Below, in pieces: positions 6,868-23,779 of a stretch of 28,533 bases of DNA. Source of the DNA: a virus (lineage: Duplodnaviria > Heunggongvirae > Uroviricota > Caudoviricetes); IMG/VR virus record IMGVR_UViG_2565956714_000005, one strand, 5' to 3'. The notes under the pieces are model-generated. The model was given only the letters and a program-made list of their open reading frames with translations, ran no database searches and was not told the DNA's origin. Numbering within the stretch: the stretch's first letter is position 1; every line of letters starts with the position of its first letter. Position numbers and translations under genes: made by a program.

Positions 6868-7730
6868 GCTTAGTCAGCCGTTGTCTCCGGGTGTCGCGTG
6901 CGCAGTTGCACGTAATTCTCAGACGAACCGATGACTGGAAAGATGGTCGCCGCAGCCGTCACTCAGATGATACGGATGTGCTTCTCCGTATACACCATGT
7001 TATCGGAGAGCTGCCCACGTATGGTTATCGTCGGGTATGGGCGCTGCTTCGCAGACAGGCCGAACTTGATGGTATGCCTGCGATCAATGCCAAACGTGTT
7101 TACCGGATCATGCGCCAGAATGCGCTGTTGCTTGAGCGAAAAACCGCTGTACCGCCATCGAAACGGGCACATACTGGCAAAGTGGCCGTGAAAGAAAGCA
7201 ATCAACGATGGTGCTCTGACGGGTTCGAGTTCCGCTGTGATAACGGAGAAAAACTGCGAGTCACGTTCGCGCTGGACTGCTGTGACCGTGAGGCACTGCA
7301 CTGGGCAGTCACTACGGGCGGCTTCGACAGTGAAACAGTACAGGACGTCATGCTGGGAGCGGTGGAACGCCGCTTCGGCAACGAGCTTCCGGCGTCTCCA
7401 GTAGAGTGGCTGACGGATAATGGTTCATGCTACCGGGCTAATGAAACGCGGCAGTTTGCCCGGATGTTGGGGCTTGAACCGAAGAACACGGCGGTGCGGA
7501 GTCCGGAGAGTAACGGCATAGCAGAGAGCTTCGTGAAAACGATAAAGCGTGACTACATCAGTATCATGCCTAAACCAGACGGGTTAACGGCAGCAAAGAA
7601 CCTTGCAGAGGCGTTCGAGCATTATAACGAATGGCATCCGCATAGTGCACTGGGTTATCGCTCGCCACGGGAATATCTGCGGCAGCAGGCCAGTAATGGA
7701 TTAAGTGATAACAGGTGTCTGGAAATATAG
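6825..7730 (+). CDS. insD: IS2 transposase OrfB (InsD), DDE integrase-type catalytic domain; expressed by -1 frameshift from insC
   Basis: ORF track 301 aa ...[41 protein letters not shown]...[11 protein letters not shown]...; GTG at 6825 overlaps the AAAAAAG slippery site. Confidence 0.9.
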
Positions 7731-7984
7731 GGGCAAATCCACTCAGCATGAAAGAGTGAAAGTTTCAGCGCGTTTCCCTTACATAATCTGTCGTTTGTAT
7801 TCTCTTCAGGCATACCGGAAAGACTAGGTATTGTCACACAACCAATACCATCGACAATCGAGATTTATATCTATTCGGTAATGTTTAAATATAACAAAAC
7901 CCCGTAAAAACGAGGTTTATGGGTAATTTGTATTGTTGAATAGCATCTGATGAGAAATTGATGCTAATACTATAAACATACTAG

Positions 7985-9821: not shown

Positions 9822-10026
9822 TCATTTTCACTTTCTTAAATCTAACGACAGATGGCTAACATTTAAGTATTGTGAAATATTATCAAATGTAATCATCATT
9901 GATTTACAAAAGATACATTTTGCCCCGAAAGGATTCATGTCAGAAACATCAAAAGATGATGTTCTATACTGGGAACCATGACAACACGGGCATCTAAAGT
10001 GAATATGGTTTGTAATATTGTCTACC

Positions 10027-10239
10027 TCAAAGCGCCACTACATGAACAGCGGCAGGACCTTTAGGTCCGTTCTCAATACCAAATTCAACTTCCTGATTCT
10101 CAGTTAATGTTTTGAAATCGTTGCTCTGAATTGCTGAGAAATGGACAAACACATCTTTGCTGCCATCTTTCGGCGTGATGAAACCAAAACCTTTTTCAGG
10201 GTTAAACCATTTCACTAAACCAGTCATTTTGTTAGACAT
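10027..10239 (-). CDS. cspI: Cold-shock protein, CspA family, 70 aa
   Basis: [70 protein letters not shown]; RNP1/RNP2 motifs; long 5' leader upstream, typical of csp genes. Confidence 0.9.
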
Positions 10240-10601
10240 AATTATTACCTTTTGAAGAAATTAGCCCTTGGGCAGAATGGTCCGAAAAAAAATATCAGAG
10301 AGAAAAACCAACAAGGAAATCTCAAGAGGTACAAATAATAAAATTATAACAATGACTGCTTCAGATAAATTTGTAACAAACCAGAACACCATTAACGCAT
10401 GATTAACCACCCATAGCAAGGATTACTTTTGTAAAGAAAAACACAGCAATGAAAGAATAGCTTTATTTATTAATAAAACGTGTCATTCTGATTAAGACCT
10501 TTTATCTTACCCTTAAGATTTCAGGAATTTTGGCTCATGGAAGAGTCCTTTTTATTTAAATTTTACATTCCGCGATGTAAATGTTCCGATTTAATATTAC
10601 C

Positions 10602-13277: not shown

Positions 13278-13418
13278 AAAAACCAGGCTACCCAGCACAC
13301 CGATTGCAGCCCACTGTGACGGAGTTACTTTATCGAGTAACTGCAATGCCCAGAAACCAGCATTACCCGCCGATGTGCCATAGGCAACACCTGTTGTTAA
13401 CTTATCCATTGATTTCAT
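13278..13418 (-). pseudogene. essQ: Holin (phage-21 S-type pinholin) N-terminal fragment with dual-start motif MKSMDKL; reading frame runs into the IS3 end, where a TGA stop is supplied by the IS
   Basis: [47 protein letters not shown] then stop from IS3 terminal TCA; strong SD GGTGAGGA; joined with the C-terminal fragment gives a 71-aa holin. Confidence 0.85.
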
Positions 13419-13637
13419 ATCCTCACCCCGATGTACACGGATGGTGCAATATGTTTGAAAAGATCGGAGTCTACGGGGTAGTTTTGACAGCACACGTTGT
13501 TCTCAACGGCGCTAAAAAAACATACACATTAAAAATGTGGGTAATTATTTTGAAAGAAAGTCATATATAAAATAATAATACGAGAAATGTTTTCATATTT
13601 AGTGTACTGTATACGGCCATTTATACAGGAAAAGCCT

Positions 13638-13808
13638 ATGTCAGAACGTAAAAACTCAAAATCACGCCGTAATTATCTCGTTAAATGTTCCTGCCCAAAC
13701 TGCACCCAAGAGTCAGAACACAGTTTTTCAAGAGTACAAAAAGGTGCCCTTTTGATCTGCCCTCATTGCAACAAAGTATTCCAGACAAATCTTAAAGCTG
13801 TAGCCTGA
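13638..13808 (+). CDS. Small zinc-ribbon protein, 56 aa (C-x-C-x2-C ... C-x2-C)
   Basis: MSERKNSKSRRNYLVKCSCPNCTQESEHSFSRVQKGALLICPHCNKVFQTNLKAVA; SD AGGA 7 nt upstream of ATG; divergent from the holin. Confidence 0.5.
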   Translation: MSERKNSKSRRNYLVKCSCPNCTQESEHSFSRVQKGALLICPHCNKVFQTNLKAVA

Positions 13809-13864
13809 TTGATTTTATTAGTAACAAGTATTTTTTATATTTTAATAATATATTTAAAGCAGAT

Positions 13865-13890
13865 AATAAAAAACCCGCCTGAGCGGGTTT
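13865..13890 (-). terminator. Rho-independent terminator (strong on the minus strand, weaker on the plus strand)
   Basis: ACCCGC-CTGA-GCGGGT stem-loop; the minus strand has a run of 9 T immediately after it. Confidence 0.6.
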
Positions 13891-14171
13891 GAGATTGTGG
13901 TGCTTTTTGTGGGAGTCATCCACTTACGCACTTTGTTTTGCCATGCCAGCAGTTAGCTTCTGCTGTAAAACTATTCATGCAGCAAACCTGCACTTCACCA
14001 CAATGGTTAGCATACTTTTCCTGATTAAGATTTTGCCAAATATGCTAGCCATTGTTTCATGTATTGGACCTCCTTACTTTTTATTAAAGAGATCCAATAT
14101 TCACTACTCTGTCCGTATCTCTACTCAGGCATCAGCCTTCTTCGTTATCGTATACAGACGAGCGATGAATT

Positions 14172-14387
14172 TTAATCAGTAATGATGACATTTGCTGCTG
14201 CAGGACCTTTAGCACCACTCTCTATAGAGAAGGTAACCTTTTGACCTTCAAATAAGGTTCGATAATTATCATTCTGAATCGCAGAAAAATGCACAAACAC
14301 ATCTTTACTACCATCAACAGGAGAAATAAAGCCGAAACCTTTATCAGCGTTAAACCATTTTACTAAACCAGTCATTTTATTTGACAT
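14172..14387 (-). CDS. cspB: Cold-shock protein, CspA family, 71 aa
   Basis: [71 protein letters not shown]. Confidence 0.9.
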
Positions 14388-14687
14388 TCTACATTCCTTA
14401 ACTTGAGCCTTTCGGCATAAATGGTTTGCATAACAGAAACGACTTCGTACTTAATTGGAGAGACTCAAAGAAGGAATAAGTGAATAACACCTGAAATGAG
14501 AACTGCTTTAGTAAACTACTTCGTATATCGTCTGTTCTTCAAACCGACGCAATCATTAACGCATAGTTGAACATATGAAGCAATGTTTATTTTAGACATC
14601 CAGCCATCTTCAACCCCATCAAAAAACTATAGCTTTCTTCAGGAACGTGTGTATAGTGCGCCAAGTTATCAGTATTAAGGAATTTTT

Positions 14688-14900
14688 TTGTCCCGTAAAA
14701 TGACAGGAATTGTCAAAACCTTTGACGGCAAAAGCGGCAAGGGTCTTATCACCCCATCCGATGGTCGTATCGATGTCCAGCTTCATGTTTCAGCGCTCAA
14801 TCTCCGCGATGCAGAAGAAATTACCACCGGATTACGCGTGGAATTTTGCCGGATAAATGGTCTGCGTGGCCCTTCAGCTGCCAATGTTTACCTTTCATGA
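14688..14900 (+). CDS. cspF: Cold-shock protein-like, CspA family (divergent member), 70 aa
   Basis: [70 protein letters not shown]; TTG start with AAGGA 7 nt upstream; divergent from cspB. Confidence 0.85.
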
Positions 14901-15194
14901 GCTATATTAAAGCTTTAATTTCAGGCCCCATCGGATCACACATGGAGAGTTTTTATGAATAACCCCGTCTGTCTTGATGACTGGTTGATTGGCTTTAAAA
15001 GCTTATGCTGTACTTTGGCCGTAATAGCTCTGCTAATAATATAATAAGCAGACTCATTGTGTTTAGGGACATTGTACTGGAAGAAAACATTTTAAACATC
15101 AGGCAAATAACCAAGTCACCAGCTAAATAATAAGTTAACAGACATGAGTCCCGGGATGAGATTCAACATTACCATTGCCCCATTTAAAGCACAA

Positions 15195-15225
15195 AACCCG
15201 CTCATCAGCGGGTTTTCTACTTTTT
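15195..15225. terminator. Bidirectional terminator-like hairpin: terminator for cspF on the plus strand and candidate tR' for the Q-dependent late promoter on the minus strand
   Basis: AACCCGCT-CATC-AGCGGGTT followed by TTCTACTTTTT on the plus strand and by TTGTGCTTT on the minus strand. Confidence 0.5.
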
Positions 15226-15261
15226 CTTAACGTCGGGTATACAAAGCCCATCGTTGAAAAA

Positions 15262-15290
15262 ATTTTATCCATATTTTTTGAAAAATGCAA
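15262..15290 (-). promoter_or_regulatory. Candidate late promoter pR' (minus strand): -35 TTGCAT, 17-bp spacer, -10 TAAAAT, just downstream of Q
   Basis: Minus-strand sequence TTGCAT-TTTTCAAAAAATATGGA-TAAAAT begins about 30 nt after the Q stop codon; position matches pR' of lambdoid phages. Confidence 0.4.
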
Positions 15291-15321
15291 ACATCATGTC
15301 GCCATCTTCAGCAAAAATCAT

Positions 15322-16074
15322 TTATCTCGTCACCTTCCTCAATTGCGCTTCCGCGTATGCTTCTTCCTGCCAGCACTTTGTTACCAGTTTACCAATGACG
15401 TCCGCATACCCCTTATACCACTGATAATCGGTCAGGTCTGGTACCAGCTTCTGGACATGACGTCGTGCCAGCGTGGTCGGTAAACGACTAAACCGGTTTC
15501 CATTACAACGCCCACAAATCTTATATACCGGTACGCCATGAAACCGGGTTCTTTTTTCATCCAGAACAATCCCTTTACCCTTACACCCTCTGCACGCTGT
15601 GCTGGCTTCGCCCTTACCATGGCAATGCTGACATAGTTCCTTCACCCATTCTTCCTTGATTACAGATTCCCCGCGTCTGTAGTGTTTCACCACTTCGCGC
15701 AATACATTATAAAATCCCGTACCTGAACAATGCTCACAGCGAGCCTTACTTGCCGCAGACCTGGAGTAATCAGCAAAGGCAAAACTCACGAGGTAAGGAA
15801 TAATCTGTAACCGGATTTCTTCACTCAATTTGTTCAATGTCGGGTTATCCAGTGCCATCGCGTAATTTAGCAGGCCTTCAATCGCAAACTGAGGGTCCTG
15901 AACACCAACTTTTGCCAGAAATAAGGCCAACCCAAGTGGTGCTTTCGACTGCACCATCCCCTGCGCTGCCATTACATCCGTAATTGTTAAACAACCGGTG
16001 CCTGTCGCTGGAGCGTCATCGCTCAATTTTGGAGATTTTGGGGAGTAATATTTTGGTAAGGCTTCAAGGTTCAT
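15322..16074 (-). CDS. quuQ: Late-gene antitermination protein Q, 250 aa
   Basis: Cys/His-rich protein (...CEHCSGTGFYN...CQHCHGKGEASTACRGCKGKGIVLDEKRTRFHG...CGRCNGN...) in the Q position; start taken at the ATG of MNLEALPKYY with GGAG SD; the track's longer form starts at TTG. Confidence 0.85.
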   Translation of the reverse strand: MNLEALPKYYSPKSPKLSDDAPATGTGCLTITDVMAAQGMVQSKAPLGLALFLAKVGVQDPQFAIEGLLNYAMALDNPTLNKLSEEIRLQIIPYLVSFAFADYSRSAASKARCEHCSGTGFYNVLREVVKHYRRGESVIKEEWVKELCQHCHGKGEASTACRGCKGKGIVLDEKRTRFHGVPVYKICGRCNGNRFSRLPTTLARRHVQKLVPDLTDYQWYKGYADVIGKLVTKCWQEEAYAEAQLRKVTR

Positions 16075-16087
16075 GCTCGTTCTCCAC

Positions 16088-17137
16088 TTACGCCAGTACG
16101 CCAATTGCCAGCGCGCGATCGATAAAACGAAATATCAGCTCCAGTTGGGAGCCATACTTATCTTCAAATGCCACTGTATCCGTATGCAGCTCGTTGTGAT
16201 GCTTTCTGCACAAAGGCAACACAAAGAGATCATGTGCTTTTGTTCCCATTCCGCCCTGCCCGTGACCAATCAGATGATGCGGATCGTCGGCTGGCATACC
16301 GCAGCAAGCACACGGCTGTGTCTTAACCCAACGTGTGTATTTCTCCTTAACCCAGCGGCGACGTTTAGGCAGCTTCATGAAAGATTCCGGAGACTCTGGA
16401 TCAACGGTGATGCTTACCACCGTCTTTTCCTGTGGTGATTTTTGTTGCTGGTGGGCGTAAGGCAACGGTGCAAGATTTTTTGTGCGTTGTTTCAATATGC
16501 TGGTGGCGGTCTGCTCTCCCGGTACGATGTCGCTTTCGCGGTACACCGAGCAGATTTTTTCCGCTGGTAATCCCAGCGAACGACGCGATACAGCCTCAGG
16601 TAGTGCATCCACCACCTGATTGCAGACCGCCCACCAGGATAATTCAGCCAAAGATAATTCCCGCTCCTGCGTACCGCTTATTGCGTGACGGATGACGTCA
16701 ATCACCCATGCTGTCAGATTTTGTTGAGCAAGCAGCTCCAGTGATTCCGATGTCTGGTCACGCAGTTGGTTGTCGCAGTGCCAGCACAACACCATTGCGC
16801 CGGTACCATAACGGTGAATGACTGTTTCAGTGTGATGGTAATCGCCATTAGGCCACTGGCAGGATGTAACATGACGTAATAGCCAGTCGGACAATGCGCC
16901 AACGCCGCCAGCAGCACGAATCACCCGTTCGTTACTAAAAAACGGCAGCAATGTTTTGTCTTCCGCCAGCGGCTGGCGAACGGCAGGAACGACTCCGGAT
17001 GGCAGATTACGCATGCTTTTTGGTTCCGGTTCCACCAGCACTCGAGGATTATGAAATATCTGTATGGATTCACGGCCCGGCTTAAGGACCACCAGCCCAA
17101 GCTCAGGCACCAGAACAGGTCTAAGTAATACCCGCAC
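16088..17137 (-). CDS. ydfU: YdfU-like protein (DUF968) with Cys cluster and HNH-like motif; start uncertain (GTG 17137 or GTG 17176)
   Basis: ...KTQPCACCGMPADDPHHLIGHGQGGMGTKAHDLFVLPLCRKHHNELHTDTVAFEDKYGSQ...; GTG at 17137 has GGAGG 5 nt upstream and gives 349 aa. Confidence 0.7.
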   Translation of the reverse strand: MRVLLRPVLVPELGLVVLKPGRESIQIFHNPRVLVEPEPKSMRNLPSGVVPAVRQPLAEDKTLLPFFSNERVIRAAGGVGALSDWLLRHVTSCQWPNGDYHHTETVIHRYGTGAMVLCWHCDNQLRDQTSESLELLAQQNLTAWVIDVIRHAISGTQERELSLAELSWWAVCNQVVDALPEAVSRRSLGLPAEKICSVYRESDIVPGEQTATSILKQRTKNLAPLPYAHQQQKSPQEKTVVSITVDPESPESFMKLPKRRRWVKEKYTRWVKTQPCACCGMPADDPHHLIGHGQGGMGTKAHDLFVLPLCRKHHNELHTDTVAFEDKYGSQLELIFRFIDRALAIGVLA

Positions 17138-17138
17138 G

Positions 17139-17417
17139 TTACCTCCAGATCCGTTGCTGGAAAGTGCGGGACGCACGTGGTGGGTGTTCGGAATAAGGCA
17201 GCCTGACAGAGATTATCCAGTGCCGATAGTCGAGACTGAGAGCTTTCTTAACCTCGAACCCGCGCCTGCGGTAAGAATGAATCAGCCATTCGGCCTGTTC
17301 TGCAGTGCATGGAGGGTGCTGGAACCATTCAGACTTGAATGCGTGAGAATACCGCCCGTGCGTGCAGGCAAGAACGGGCGAATTATCAGAATTGTAATAT
17401 TTTGCGTTGCGTGCCAT
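17139..17417 (-). CDS. Hypothetical protein, 92 aa, translationally coupled to ydfU
   Basis: ATG with SD GGAGAAAA; MARNAKYYNSDNSPVLACTHGRYSHAFKSEWFQHPPCTAEQAEWLIHSYRRRGFEVKKALSLDYRHWIISVRLPYSEHPP...; stop 1 nt before the GTG of ydfU. Confidence 0.5.
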   Translation of the reverse strand: MARNAKYYNSDNSPVLACTHGRYSHAFKSEWFQHPPCTAEQAEWLIHSYRRRGFEVKKALSLDYRHWIISVRLPYSEHPPRASRTFQQRIWR

Positions 17418-17483
17418 CGGTTTTCTCCGGTGGCACGGTGTTACTCAGCGGGAGTTCAGCCCCGCGCAAGATTGTAGATGAGT

Positions 17484-17735
17484 TTATTCTCCTGAAAAAG
17501 CAGAAAAGCCAGCTTTTATTCCGATCTCTTTCAATGCCTGTAATGAAGTGACAAACTCACCTTCGCGCAAGATAAATCCGTCCGTGACCCGAGCATCCAC
17601 AAAATTAATTAACGCAGCCCCATTCTTTCGCAAACACATAATGCGGTAATGACTAACAAGATTTCCATTTTCAACGCACACAGCATAGAGGCCATCTTCA
17701 CAAAAAATTTTACGCAGTTCTTCGATGTTCATCAT
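17484..17735 (-). CDS. rem: Rem-like small protein, 83 aa
   Basis: MMNIEELRKIFCEDGLYAVCVENGNLVSHYRIMCLRKNGAALINFVDARVTDGFILREGEFVTSLQALKEIGIKAGFSAFSGE; size and position match K-12 Qin rem. Confidence 0.6.
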   Translation of the reverse strand: MMNIEELRKIFCEDGLYAVCVENGNLVSHYRIMCLRKNGAALINFVDARVTDGFILREGEFVTSLQALKEIGIKAGFSAFSGE

Positions 17736-17852
17736 CAGAATCCTTCCGGATAATTAGCTCTCCCCTTTAAGGGACCATCCCTCTTATCCCTGCGCGCTAC
17801 TTAAGTATTTTTGATTCTATTCCGGCACCGTCCAGAACTTCAAACGCGTTGA

Positions 17853-17881
17853 AAATAAAAACAAAAACCCGCCGAAGCGGG
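17853..17881 (-). terminator. Rho-independent terminator downstream of hok
   Basis: Minus strand CCCGC-TTCG-GCGGG followed by TTTTTGTTTTTATTTTC. Confidence 0.7.
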
Positions 17882-17951
17882 TTAAGTGCGGGTGCGTTGA
17901 GGATGCCTGCCACATCAGAGGTGGCGAGGGATTTCTCCCCCGCCGGGTCTC

Positions 17952-18107
17952 TTACTCCTCAGGTTCGTAAGCTGTGAAGACAGCGACCTCCGTCTGGCCG
18001 GTTCGGATTCGTACCTCGCAGAGGTCTTTCCTCGTTACCAGTGCCGTCACTATGACGGTTAAACAGATGACGATCAGGGCGATTAACATCGCCTTTTGCT
18101 GCTTCAT
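17952..18107 (-). CDS. hokD: Hok-family type I toxin (membrane-depolarising peptide), 51 aa
   Basis: MKQQKAMLIALIVICLTVIVTALVTRKDLCEVRIRTGQTEVAVFTAYEPEE; SD AAGGAGAAG; the track ORF extends in frame upstream to 18164. Confidence 0.85.
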   Translation of the reverse strand: MKQQKAMLIALIVICLTVIVTALVTRKDLCEVRIRTGQTEVAVFTAYEPEE

Positions 18108-18365
18108 AGCCTGCTTCTCCTTGCCTTTCGGCACGTAAGAGGCTAACCTACATGTGTCTAGCATGAAATTGGCCTCAGATTAATGTTAAGCGTCTTGCAG
18201 GACGCGTAATGTTAACTGGGGCTTTTCTCTATCTGCCGTTGGTGTCCATGCCCGAGGCAGATAGCCTCAAGCACCCGCAGTCATTCTACTTAACTAAGAT
18301 TTCCCCGCAAACCGTTTTTGTCCAGCACAGTAAATATCCAACTAAACCAATGGAGTTCGCTGTAT

Positions 18366-18545
18366 TTACCGCCAGTATTCAATGCACATGACCGCCATGA
18401 ACACCCCTAAAAAAAGGGCATTTATATATCCAAATATTAATATCAAAACATCAACTTTTTCCATATACCTTGCTGTGAAGATGATGGGCATACATGATGC
18501 GAACAACCAGAACGCAACAAACAAAAACTGCAATGCGTTTTTCAT
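18366..18545 (-). CDS. Small hydrophobic membrane protein, 59 aa, two predicted TM helices
   Basis: MKNALQFLFVAFWLFASCMPIIFTARYMEKVDVLILIFGYINALFLGVFMAVMCIEYWR; strong SD AGGAGGA 5 nt upstream of this ATG. Confidence 0.5.
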   Translation of the reverse strand: MKNALQFLFVAFWLFASCMPIIFTARYMEKVDVLILIFGYINALFLGVFMAVMCIEYWR

Positions 18546-18799
18546 TATTCCTCCTACAATCAATGTGCAATTACATTTAAACACACCTCAATTTGGCCGG
18601 ACATATAAATATCTAAACCAGAAAAAATCACTTACATAGCGTTACAAACTCTTTAGTCTAAAGGTTCATCGTAAAACATTCCCCATACTTATCAGTCCGT
18701 TCCGCGCCAGGTAGCTCATTGCCTTATCTGGCAACCTGTAATCAGGTTTCCGCTTTTTCAGTTGGCTGGTCGTTTAACCGACATAGTTAATCCATTAAT

Positions 18800-19087
18800 C
18801 TAGTTGCCGGATGTTGGTGGATTTTCGCGTTTTAGTTGTTCATAAAAGTGCACAGCTTTAACCAGTTCTTCTGATGTAACTGGGACTGGTGAGGCAGTGA
18901 ATAAGGCCTGAATTTGATAGTTCGGCCTGTCGTTACAATCCTCTTTTTTCGGTACATATTTCCAGTCACCAGACCACTACTTCCCCTGAAAGTCCGTAAC
19001 GCCTTTTTTCACGTAGCGATATCGCCATGCCACTGGTTTTGCTTGCCCCGCCGTTTCATGCCCTTCCTGATAATTAATCTCGCTCAT
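18800..19087 (-). pseudogene. About 95-codon ORF interrupted by one in-frame amber (TAG) codon at 18977-18979
   Basis: MSEINYQEGHETAGQAKPVAWRYRYVKKGVTDFQGK-TAG-WSGDWKYVPKKEDCNDRPNYQIQALFTASPVPVTSEELVKAVHFYEQLKRENPPTSGN; both halves share one frame; left boundary less certain than the right. Confidence 0.3.
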
Positions 19088-19697
19088 TCATCGCCCCACT
19101 CATCACAATATGCTTCGACCGGAGTTTTTCCCGCTTCATAGTCATCACGCTAGGATTCGACATCAGCAGCACTTCCACCGCGTAACTCACCATAGTCCAT
19201 TAATAGTTCATCCCGCTCTTCAAAACTGATGTTATATTTAGCTGAACAAAAATCAGCCACTTTGTTCTTCCTCATCGTCTTTTATTTCGTGGTATGAGTA
19301 ATTGCAGTAGTTAAAGAAAATTTCTTATGCTCCGTCATGAATTTCCTCAGGTGTTGCGTCATCGTCCACTTCGAATACATCCTCAAAATCTCCACCAGCT
19401 ATTCCCGTTTCAATAATAATTTTGAACTTTCGCATTTCACTACCGCCCTTTCGGGCGGCCTCCTGATGTTCTGAGGGTGCAGAAATCCATCCGGTTAAGG
19501 ATTAAATTTTATTTACAGAACTGAATTTAATTATTCAGATATACGTATCTGTAGCCTTACGAATCTACTCACTGGATGCCTCTTTCATAAAAATAATCCA
19601 GTGGGTTTTATCGTTTTTTCCCTGTTCGTTGACAGATAACAGGTTTTCTGTCTGTCAGTGCCAGAATCTGGCTTACCGGTATTTGCGTTTCATTCCA

Positions 19698-20054
19698 TTA
19701 AAAAATCAGAACGCCGTGCGGCCTCAACACCCGAAAGGCTTCTTTAAATCTCTGTCGCGAATCATCACGCCAGGCATCTTTATTCAGCCGTCCATATTTC
19801 TTTCCCATCCAGGCGTTATCACCAACACTCTCAAGATGCGGAGGGTCTAATACAACCATCGAAAAAGATGCGTCTGCAAATGATAATGCACGAAAATCTG
19901 CGATAATGTCAGGGCTGATAATCAAGCGTCTCCCATTGCGTAATGTGTATCCTTCTTTTCTGATATCGCTGAATATCGCCCGTTCGTCAGACTTATCGAA
20001 CCAGAACATGCGGCTGCCACAGCACATATCAAGAATGGTTGCCGGTGCACTCAC
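19698..20054 (-). CDS. Minimal SAM-dependent methyltransferase-like protein, 118 aa, possibly truncated
   Basis: Motif I LDMCCGSRM near the N-terminus, acidic strand-end IFSDI, DPPH tetrad (motif IV) and RVLRPHGVLIF; GTG start overlaps the stop of the upstream gene (GTGA); ends at TAA followed by 29 in-frame sense codons. Confidence 0.5.
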   Translation of the reverse strand: MSAPATILDMCCGSRMFWFDKSDERAIFSDIRKEGYTLRNGRRLIISPDIIADFRALSFADASFSMVVLDPPHLESVGDNAWMGKKYGRLNKDAWRDDSRQRFKEAFRVLRPHGVLIF

Positions 20055-20473
20055 TGCGCCACGTCCTGAAAATTACCCTGATAGAAAGCCAGTATGCGCT
20101 GCATAACTTCGCTCTTCCGGCACTCGCGACAGATTATGTTTAGGCGACTGTCGTAGCGACGTATTTCTCCGTCAGGTGATGACCAGATAAGGTCCGGATC
20201 AACCACAGCAGGTTTCTTCACCTTTGCCCTCGAGAGTTTTTTGCGGGCGTTTTGCCAGTCCTTACGCGCCTGTTCAGAGGTGAATAACCCGTAGCCGGAG
20301 TTGTATACATCGCCACTGGCTACCAGCTCTCTGGCAAGAACGCTCATCAGATATCTAGTCGCACCTGTTTTAGCTTCCAGTTGCCGTAACGTCTCACGGC
20401 CGCTCTGGCGCACGAGTTCCACCACCTGCCATTTAATTTTTTCCCGCTCTTCTTGTGTAAAAACTTTTGCCAC
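20051..20473 (-). CDS. Hypothetical protein, 140 aa, no ATPase motifs
   Basis: GTG start with SD AAGGGGGA; MAKVFTQEEREKIKWQVVELVRQSGRETLRQLEAKTGATRYLMSVLARELVASGDV...; sits where a helicase loader would normally be but has no Walker motifs. Confidence 0.5.
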   Translation of the reverse strand: MAKVFTQEEREKIKWQVVELVRQSGRETLRQLEAKTGATRYLMSVLARELVASGDVYNSGYGLFTSEQARKDWQNARKKLSRAKVKKPAVVDPDLIWSSPDGEIRRYDSRLNIICRECRKSEVMQRILAFYQGNFQDVAQ

Positions 20474-20513
20474 AAGTCCCCCTTAAAATTACCTCATGAC
20501 CTGAAATCAACAC

Positions 20514-21477
20514 TTATCCTCTGAAACCAGGCGGAATTTCTGTATCCGGTTCAGAAATATGATTAACACAACGCTGTACAGGTGAACGTCCCAGGCGGAT
20601 GACCAGTTCGTCCCATTTTTCGCGGAGCTTTGACGGGCTCATGATGTTTTTTACCCAGAATGGATCTCGCTGAACCCGACCAAACATTTCGCAAATTTGT
20701 CTGTGGCTTCTGCCATCCAGCATCCGCATTGTGCGCACGTCATTGGCCCAGGCAGTCCAGTTAGGCTCTTTTGGTCGCATGATCTCGCCATCATCACTGG
20801 CTGCCTGTTCGTAGAGACCCACGATCCGCCCCCAGATCCACTGCGCACACGCCAAATCCTCCCTGCTACCCCACTGGCGTTTTTTCGCACTAAACACAAC
20901 CGCGTCGGAGTTCCGGGTTAAAAAATCCTGTTCAGTCGTCTGCGGGTCCGGTTGCGAAGCTTCCGGACGAAAAGTGTTTTTATTCTCTGTAGTAATCTCT
21001 GTTGTATTCTCTGTAAGATCATCAGGCCATTTTGACCCGATGACATTGGGTCGTTTTGAACCAATGGAGCGTTTCATTTTGACCTCTTCCATCGTGTCAT
21101 TTTGACCTGATGGAGCGGCGCATTTTGAACCGATGGATTCGCTCAATTTGCCACCATCTAAAAGCTCGCTCCCATAGTTGATCGTGTAGAAATTGGTCAT
21201 ATCGCGCTTTGATTTATTGAGCTTTTCACAACGCAAAAGCCCCAGCGTTTTCAGACTTGCAAACGCGCGCTTTAACGTTGACTCTGACCAGAATGGGAAC
21301 TGTTCCAGCCATTGTTCCGTTGTGTTATAAATCCAGCGAACACCATCACATTCCATGCCGGAGTTGGTATCTCTCAACCAGTAGTGCAGTTGTTGCAAAA
21401 CAATGGCTTCGTTTAAGCCAATTTTCATTGCCAGCTGCGTGTTTATAACCAGTGGGCGTTCAGCAAAAAGAAGGCTC
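20514..21477 (-). CDS. Replication initiator: N-terminal phage replisome-organiser-like domain, C-terminal DnaT (primosomal protein I)-like domain; start uncertain (ATG 21477 or 21426; track TTG 21533)
   Basis: C-terminus ...GRSPVQRCVNHISEPDTEIPPGFRG parallels the end of E. coli DnaT (...VSEPDSQIPPGFRG) as I recall it; internal repeated peptides (SIGSK x3, TENTTEITTENK) coincide with DNA iterons. Confidence 0.7.
20981..21016. repeat. Three 12-bp direct repeats (W-W-TCTCTGT-W-G) in an AT-rich stretch beside the iterons
   Basis: TCTCTGT at 20984, 20996 and 21008, period 12 bp. Confidence 0.5.
21028..21144. repeat. Five direct iterons of 23-24 bp, consensus CATTTTGA(C/A)C(Y)GATGG: candidate replication origin inside the initiator gene
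   Basis: CATTTTGACC/CGTTTTGAACC motif starts at 21028, 21052, 21075, 21098 and 21121. Confidence 0.65.
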
Positions 21478-21981
21478 ATAATTCCATCCAGCTTTTTGTT
21501 GGTATTGCTGTCGATACGCAAGTTTGAAAGCAATTGCTTTTTCTATAAGTTCGTCAGTTTCACGATCCACTACGGCAGGATCAGCAAAAAGCAGTCCGGA
21601 CTCCACCACATCGCCATATTCTTTGTTTAACCCGGCGATCATGCACGTGATGCTTTTTCCGTCAGTAATTTCACGATACAACCTGAAATCATTAATCCGG
21701 ATAGCCTCCATAATTGCAGGCACTAGCGCCGTGAACTTTTCACGCTTATCCCTGGTGTCGATAGCCTTCCAGCGTTCAAATATCTTCACTCGATTAACGC
21801 CAAGCGCTCGCTGATCAATCGCGCCACCTTCATATGTGACACGCTGAACATCGATGTTCGGGCGCTCTTTCAAAGCCCAGAATGCTTCAGTGATTAATAT
21901 CGTCGCCTGCTCCTGTGTCATTCCTGGTCGACATATCCAGGCATCCAGAGCCTCACGAGCCTGTTCAGGAGTGATTTTCAT
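21460..21981 (-). CDS. Hypothetical early protein, 173 aa, in the cII position downstream of the Cro-like gene (possibly YdaT-like)
   Basis: ATG ORF MKITPEQAREALDAWICRPGMTQEQATILITEAFWALKERPNIDVQRVTYEGG...; overlaps the dicC 3' end by 17 nt; family assignment not secure. Confidence 0.45.
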   Translation of the reverse strand: MKITPEQAREALDAWICRPGMTQEQATILITEAFWALKERPNIDVQRVTYEGGAIDQRALGVNRVKIFERWKAIDTRDKREKFTALVPAIMEAIRINDFRLYREITDGKSITCMIAGLNKEYGDVVESGLLFADPAVVDRETDELIEKAIAFKLAYRQQYQQKAGWNYEPSFC

Positions 21982-23726: not shown

Positions 23727-23779
23727 TTTCTGGTGACGTTTGGCGGTATCAGTTTTACTCCGTGACTGCTCTGCCGCCC
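23727..23779 (+). ncRNA. dicF: DicF small regulatory RNA (53 nt; Hfq-dependent antisense regulator of ftsZ and other mRNAs)
   Basis: TTTCTGGTGACGTTTGGCGGTATCAGTTTTACTCCGTGACTGCTCTGCCGCCC followed by TTTTT matches the DicF sequence as recalled; lies between ydfC and dicB as in K-12. Confidence 0.85.

Follow-up and report, generated by a model that had tools for sequence, protein, structure and literature searches.

In the Qin prophage of Escherichia coli K-12, the toxin gene hokD (relF) is the third gene of the relB-relE-hokD array. The 28,533-nt stretch of phage DNA analysed here (IMG/VR record IMGVR_UViG_2565956714_000005, called the window below) encodes an identical 51-aa toxin behind a long structured leader. 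This raises the question of what kind of locus this is, and which of the two arrangements is the complete one. The window locus very probably represents a type I toxin-antitoxin module, hok/mok/sok, which belongs to the hokD/hokW subgroup, is complete and apparently intact, and is carried by a Qin-type lambdoid prophage. It was identified as hok/mok/sok because the toxin belongs to the Pfam family HOK_GEF, the Rfam model RF01794 extends over the whole leader, and the DNA is 94% identical to the annotated locus of phage 933W. Earlier work had already described the hok/sok family and the folding pathway of its RNAs, as well as hokW-sokW, a nearly identical copy in a prophage.

The hok gene, its leader and its prophage context

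The locus is situated between the replication genes and the Q antiterminator gene, and it is co-oriented with both. The following features of the hok mRNA and its reading frames were assigned:

17952-18107, minus strand: hok toxin gene, 51 aa and stop codon (open reading frame list, Pfam, identity to HokD)
18117-18122, minus strand: hok Shine-Dalgarno sequence AAGGAG; the K-12 breakpoint lies at its 5' edge (18121/18122)
17952-18164, minus strand: 70-aa mok reading frame, which shares the frame and the stop codon of hok (open reading frame list)
18173-18176, minus strand: mok Shine-Dalgarno sequence GAGG, transcript nt 101-104, 8 nt before the mok ATG (read from the sequence)
18283-18310, minus strand: putative hok promoter, -35 TTGCGG (18310-18305), 16-nt spacer, -10 TAGAAT (18288-18283) (read from the sequence)
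17866-18276, minus strand: full-length hok mRNA, about 411 nt from the inferred +1 (G at 18276) to the last nucleotide of the terminator stem
17852-17883, minus strand: intrinsic terminator of the hok mRNA

The toxin, whose conserved look had been pointed out in a preliminary description of this DNA, is encoded at 18107..17952 (minus strand) and is 100% identical to K-12 HokD, 92% to HokW of 933W, 82% to HokC and 39% to R1 Hok. It scored 82.9 bits against Pfam PF01848 (HOK_GEF; cut-off 22). The in-frame upstream extension noted in the same description is the 70-aa open reading frame at 18164..17952 (minus strand), a homologue of mokW of 933W. Its layout is the same as that of the annotated mokW (933W) and mokC (K-12), and the 70-aa product matched PHROG 251, 'MokW-like host killing', with an E value of 7.7e-33. 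At the matching places, the RefSeq annotation gives 'hokD' only and omits mok and Sok.

A covariance-model search, which had been suggested earlier, was carried out with Rfam. Model RF01794 matched 18276..18102 (minus strand) over model positions 1-157 of 157, with 114.3 bits (gathering score 59) and an E value of 1.3e-25. The structured leader ahead of hok is 169 nt long. The fold of the 411-nt transcript, in which the 5' and 3' ends are paired, has a minimum free energy of -171.1 kcal/mol and a z-score of -7.4. Taken with the E value of the RF01794 match, this z-score indicates that the leader signal did not arise by chance. The model is named 'sok' in Rfam and is oriented as the hok mRNA leader, with a consensus running from tac to the hok AUG. 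In K-12 and 933W it falls opposite the annotated sokC, sokB, sokE and sokW (L003, L004, L007, L008, L010). Because of this orientation, the match shows the locus but the wrong strand for Sok. A Sok gene on the minus strand, as the match would suggest, was rejected, since RF01794 marks the hok-leader strand in every reference locus.

The start of the hok mRNA was placed at 18276, by homology alone, since the RF01794 model begins there and the alignment with the R1-type and 933W loci agrees. The -10 box ends 6 nt ahead of this position, and a -10-like hexamer occurs at an equal distance from GGG(T/C)GCTT in the hok homologues. Judged from its sequence, the putative hok promoter is weak. The sigma-70 consensus scan reported neither the hok nor the Sok promoter, both of which are non-consensus; its only match was at 17843-17814 (minus strand), downstream of the terminator and ahead of rem. 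Both promoters were therefore placed by homology and conservation. The terminator that had been described after hok was found as a stem at 17883-17866 with 7 pairs (5 G-C), followed by a T run. Its helix fails to align across homologues (32.8% paired), which is uninformative on the window's own terminator because the 3' flanks vary between loci.

Just upstream of the hok promoter, at 18369-18545 (minus strand), there is a 59-aa, strongly hydrophobic open reading frame (MKNALQFLFVAFWLF...) with an AGGAGG ribosome-binding site. It had no match in Pfam, NCBIfam or PHROG and is unannotated in the RefSeq and phage records examined. Rfam also detected two cspA-type thermoregulator leaders at 14156-14548 and 10000-10385 (both minus strand), which belong to cspB- and cspI-like genes of Qin, and a full-length DicF small RNA at 23728-23779 (plus strand). 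These matches confirm the Qin-type prophage context. A 707-nt segment (7036-7742) matches the IS2E remnant of K-12 Qin at 95.9%, and its position in the prophage differs from that in K-12.

Predicted alternative pairings of the hok mRNA and the putative Sok antisense RNA

Homologues were collected with a single Hok protein query and one genome per species, which gave 53 loci. The alignment was built from 41 non-identical complete hok loci of 8 or more genera, taken from Escherichia, Shigella, Kluyvera, Photorhabdus, Pantoea, Erwinia, Citrobacter, Pseudocitrobacter and Kalamiella together with 933W and an R1-type plasmid. Decayed relatives were also met: L013 (E. coli) has an eroded tac and leader, L055 (Shigella flexneri, hokC-type) a frameshifted toxin, and L051 a damaged relE-hok. 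The RNA elements and the Sok gene were located as follows:

18265-18276, minus strand: tac (translational activator), GGGUGCUUGAGG, transcript nt 1-12
18248-18274, minus strand: metastable hairpin of 11 bp at the 5' end of the nascent transcript, nt 3-29
18229-18264, minus strand: upper tac-stem hairpin, CUAUCUGCC / GGCAGAUAG, present in minimum-energy folds
18218-18224, minus strand: ucb, anti-Shine-Dalgarno of mok, AAGCCCC, nt 53-59
18135-18177, minus strand: Sok target hairpin formed by the mok Shine-Dalgarno sequence and dcb (GAGGC / GCCUC), with the mok AUG in the stem and CUAG (YUNR motif) in the loop
17923-17945, minus strand: 3'-UTR stem-loop, CGGCGGGGGAGAAAUCCCUCGCC, found in full-length and truncated folds
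17890-17902, minus strand: fbi (fold-back inhibitory) element, CCUCAACGCACCC, which is the complement of tac apart from a single bulged C
18121-18149, plus strand: Sok promoter, -35 TTGCCT (18121-18126), 17-nt spacer, -10 TAACCT (18144-18149) (homology and conservation)
18156-18229, plus strand: Sok antisense RNA, about 71-74 nt, with ends transferred from the sokW annotation of 933W (18156-18226)

The partner of tac depends on the length of the RNA that is folded: it is fbi in the full-length mRNA, ucb in the truncated and 60-nt RNAs, and nt 19-29 in the nascent transcript. In the minimum free energy and centroid folds of the full-length mRNA, tac (nt 1-12) pairs with fbi (nt 375-387). This duplex has an energy of -21.5 kcal/mol, lies at an equal 3'-UTR offset (45-56 nt) in nearly all homologues, and is 89.2% paired across the 41 homologues, with pair 4 being UA in 25, CG in 12 and UG in 3. 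When the first 35 nt were folded, the metastable 5' hairpin was obtained at -18.8 kcal/mol (z-score -4.7); in the 41 sequences it is 95.8% paired, versus 30-51% with a slid partner. Position 4 of tac covaries with both partners (UA/CG 25/12 with fbi and 26/12 with the metastable-hairpin partner), and such coupled covariation is the pattern expected for mutually exclusive pairings.

The mok Shine-Dalgarno sequence likewise pairs in two ways. In the full-length fold, nt 101-104 are sequestered by AGCCCC of ucb, and in the truncated fold ucb pairs with tac instead. GAGG is invariant in 41/41 aligned sequences. The tac/ucb helix is 99.3% paired and never varies in the 41 sequences, so that it has no covariation support of its own. 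The hairpin of the mok Shine-Dalgarno sequence with dcb (-13.6 kcal/mol, z-score -2.5) is present in the truncated-mRNA fold and carries two-sided changes in 7 of its 14 pairs. Among the states recovered, the truncated, 60-nt and 35-nt folds together yielded the tac/ucb helix, the SD/dcb hairpin and the metastable hairpin. The 9-bp-stem hairpin of the preliminary description was reproduced in minimum-energy folds: CTATCTGCC (18264-18256) pairs with GGCAGATAG (18237-18229), the stem is 95.7% paired over the 41 homologues, and 3 pairs show a two-sided change.

The whole full-length structure of the window was also projected onto the 41 homologues. In total 83.6% of the cells were paired, compared with 37-43% for slid partners, and 47 pairs of the structure showed changes on both sides. 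Every RNA element of the hok family is present; covariation was seen for tac/fbi, SD/dcb and the metastable hairpin, and tac/ucb is invariant. The computed folding states agree with those of the R1 hok model in the summary given by Le Rhun et al. 2022 (PMC9841398). By analogy with R1 as described there, the 3'-UTR stem-loop (95-96% paired across homologues) presumably forms the protective 3' end that the hok mRNA has after processing. Within the toxin gene, TACGAA at 17964-17969 (minus strand) is invariant in 41/41 aligned hok loci; the Tyr47 codon TAC occupies 17969-17967.

A Sok-like antisense RNA had been suspected on the plus strand. In agreement with this, sokW of 933W maps to 18156-18226 (plus strand), and the sequence supports a Sok gene on this strand with a promoter and a terminator hairpin, which would overlap the mok start. 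The predicted Sok fold consists of a 9-nt single-stranded 5' tail, a long hairpin and then GGGGCUUUUCUC, a U-rich tail (-30.3 kcal/mol, z-score -5.5). In the promoter, the TTG of the -35 box and positions A2 and T6 of the -10 box are invariant in 41/41 sequences. The consensus scan missed it because the -10 box matches at only 3/6 positions. The corresponding -10 box of sokW was mutated by Takada et al. 2021 with primers YO-421/422, and this change of TAACCT into GAGCCG silences sokW (PMC8621323). These mutagenic primers alter TAGGTTA on the hok strand, which equals the TAACCT box at 18144-18149 of the window.

The helix common to the hok leader and the Sok hairpin (helix 5; 18176-18218, alignment A2 columns 73-128) showed 0 one-sided and 6 two-sided changes. 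All of them are Watson-Crick to Watson-Crick changes, whereas other helices tolerate G-U intermediates; the restriction to double changes fits selection on the folding of both strands. The window Sok differs from SokW at 7/71 positions, of which 6 are within the first 16 nt (18156-18171, plus strand, versus L003:710-725). These differences are situated in the Sok recognition tail and the adjoining stem, which may limit cross-repression with SokW. The comparison suggests that paralogous hok/sok copies in one genome could be insulated from each other.

From the computed structures, and from homology to R1 hok/sok and hokW-sokW as regards function, the following course of events is proposed. The weak promoter would start the hok mRNA at about 18276, and the metastable hairpin would hide the 5' tac in the nascent RNA. 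In the finished 411-nt mRNA, end pairing of tac with fbi would then lock the molecule, while ucb sequesters the mok ribosome-binding site; the locked mRNA would be neither translated nor bound by Sok. Slow 3' trimming would remove fbi, upon which tac could capture ucb and the mok Shine-Dalgarno sequence would shift into the SD/dcb hairpin that displays the CUAG U-turn loop. Sok, an unstable RNA of about 71 nt transcribed from the plus strand (18156-18226), would pair through its 5' tail with the CUAG loop and the mok start, so that mok and coupled hok translation are blocked and the duplex is degraded. Should Sok transcription stop because the prophage is lost or induced, or because transcription is blocked in general, the processed mRNA, which is stable, would be translated, and the 51-aa Hok peptide would damage the inner membrane. 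For the window locus, we infer the start sites, the 3' processing and the instability of Sok. In published work, repression by Sok, trimming of the hok mRNA at its 3' end and the toxicity of Hok have been demonstrated for R1 and for hokW-sokW.

The relBE-hokD junction of K-12 and rival readings

The K-12 relBEF arrangement had been taken as the reference in the preliminary description, with the missing relBE as an oddity. The comparison with K-12 Qin inverts this reading. In a blastn search, window positions 13278-18121 matched K-12 Qin at 99.96%. The match breaks off at 18121, which is 14 nt ahead of the hokD ATG and marks the 5' border of the hok Shine-Dalgarno sequence, and it resumes at 21702. 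The 3.6 kb in between (18122-21701) are absent from K-12 Qin, which has relE-relB-ydfV-flxA-ydfW (2.1 kb) instead. In the window this segment contains the hok leader, Sok, a small membrane open reading frame, a methyltransferase-like gene, a DUF977 (Ren-like) gene and an O-like replication gene. Both loci belong to the same prophage and the same chromosomal neighbourhood, and over the stretch that begins 14 nt ahead of the ATG and takes in rem, ydfU and ydfT, their DNA agrees at 99.9%. The window has all of the hok promoter, tac, ucb, the mok start, dcb and the Sok gene with its promoter, whereas K-12 hokD has none of them. Since the homology ends 14 nt before the ATG, this sequence comparison identifies K-12 hokD as a truncated, rearranged form and the window locus as the complete one. 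Published accounts (PMC12214031; bioRxiv 10.1101/2025.08.07.668861) describe K-12 hokD as inactivated by a genomic rearrangement that removed canonical toxin-antitoxin components.

The frequency of both forms was determined in 5426 complete E. coli genomes, where a genome was counted if it had a place covering at least 80% of the probe. With 240-nt probes centred on the junction, the K-12 relE|hokD junction was found in 1165/5426 genomes and the leader|hok junction of the window in 4022/5426, the latter count including close paralogues such as hokW. The genome of E. coli C (NZ_CP029371) agrees at 100% with the whole 240-nt leader|hok probe. A 621-nt probe for the window-specific context was found in 1655/5426. 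The complete hok form is thus commoner in E. coli than relE|hokD, close paralogues being counted. An arrangement related to that of K-12 occurs in Kluyvera sp. CHPC 1.2972 (L035:1-792), where relB-relE-hok is 90% identical to K-12 over about 800 nt, and also in L014 and L051. The Kluyvera array ends in a different, Citrobacter-like hok allele with a toxin 70% identical, and its junction is without the GGAG of the hok Shine-Dalgarno sequence.

It had been stated that no relE or relB occurs in the approximately 260 nt ahead of hok, and the 258 nt from the hok ATG to 18365 are indeed free of both. The relBEF arrangement, with relE ending right upstream of the hokD Shine-Dalgarno sequence and relB before relE, is absent from the window. 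Relics that might have been overlooked were sought in the whole window: tblastn with K-12 RelB and RelE gave no match at E<=10, and blastn detected no K-12 relBE DNA. Hidden relBE remnants were consequently rejected at the sequence level. Decayed copies do exist elsewhere (the eroded leader of L013, the frameshifted hok of L055 and the damaged relE-hok of L051), and one may ask if the window locus is itself a decaying remnant, with hok a member of a pseudo-operon as in K-12. We consider this highly improbable, as the window shows no damage to the open reading frames, to either Shine-Dalgarno sequence, to any pairing element or to the terminator. The earlier view of a stand-alone hok/sok-type locus is borne out by the RF01794 match of the leader and by 933W, which has mokW, hokW and sokW at homologous positions.

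Structural completeness is no guarantee of activity, since native chromosomal hokA, hokB and hokC are reported to lack post-segregational killing (bioRxiv 10.1101/2025.08.07.668861). Together with the weak hok promoter, this speaks for a structurally complete but physiologically silent prophage passenger, from which too little Hok is released, for example owing to inefficient processing or translation. We regard such silence as unlikely. Activity has been shown for the hokW-sokW locus, which is 94% identical. Takada et al. 2021 (PMC8621323) found that HokW is toxic and is neutralised by sokW when the latter is expressed from the sokW promoter, that mutation of the sokW -10 box releases the toxicity, and that phage release drops by half once hokW-sokW is deleted. 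Continuing selection on the folding pathway is, moreover, indicated by compensatory changes in several helices that exclude one another. By comparison with hokW, the window locus is probably active. The same work found that HokW production after mitomycin C needs RecA and that sokW RNA vanishes on induction (PMC8621323). This, and the position of hok between and co-oriented with dicC, the O-like and Ren-like genes and Q, would suit an expression of Hok mainly by read-through from the early-right operon instead of its own promoter, which would couple Hok release to induction. Antiterminated transcripts from upstream would have no tac at their 5' end and would converge on the Sok promoter. We find it doubtful that read-through is the main source of Hok, for conservation extends to the hok-family 5' end, to tac and to a -10 box at constant spacing, and this speaks for use of the locus's own promoter; read-through would also supplement the canonical mechanism and not replace it. 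Two rather speculative readings can be added, which we hold to be quite unlikely. In the first, induction-timed read-through Hok would serve as a lysis helper in Qin-type phages: antiterminated read-through could yield hok RNAs without the tac lock and interfere with the convergent Sok promoter. In the second, the relBE-hok fusion would, to judge from the Kluyvera sequence (L035), have arisen long ago as a mobile composite module and would be no accident of K-12.

Our preferred reading, that of a complete hok/mok/sok module, is of practical value for annotation: the K-12 relBE-hokD is best read as a rearranged, regulator-less form and not as the reference arrangement. As a discovery it has little weight; most complete E. 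coli genomes carry complete copies of a locus of this type.

Comparison with known hok systems

The hok/mok/sok (parB) locus of plasmid R1 and the window locus have the same architecture, the same alternative RNA pairings, the same Rfam model and a CUAG loop in the target hairpin. They differ in the toxin, which is 39% identical, in the loop of the upper tac-stem, which is longer in R1-type loci, and in the Sok hairpin, which is shorter there. The R1 locus is plasmid-borne, whereas that of the window is prophage-borne. The hokC (gef)/mokC/sokC locus of E. coli is closer to the window; its toxin is 82% identical, mok is in frame with hok, and tac is the same. Its leader, however, is about 20 nt shorter and does not have the insert that lengthens the Sok hairpin. 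Moreover, hokC is a locus of the chromosomal backbone, disrupted downstream by IS186 in K-12. In K-12-like hokC loci, IS186 separates the gene from fbi (L023, L007).

The version of the window itself is found in phage HannyBb at 99.3% identity, between a Ren-like gene and the Q gene. The nearest described system is hokW/mokW/sokW of phage 933W and the Sakai prophage Sp5 (AF125520), which shares 94% nucleotide identity with the window over 401 nt. The 933W record of 1999 annotates mokW, hokW and a 71-nt 'SokW antisense RNA'. Like the window, the 933W locus has a 169-nt leader, identical tac and fbi, an in-frame mok, the Sok promoter boxes and a long Sok hairpin, and the loci of 933W/Sp5 and the window are both in lambdoid phages or prophages. 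The C-terminus of Hok reads VFTAYEPEE in the window and VFVDYESEK in HokW. Downstream of fbi, terminator included, the 933W sequence is unlike that of the window. The genome position also differs, since the window locus lies between the replication genes and Q and the 933W locus near the right end. Candidate roles of hokW are to maintain the prophage, to assist lysis upon induction and to defend against phages.
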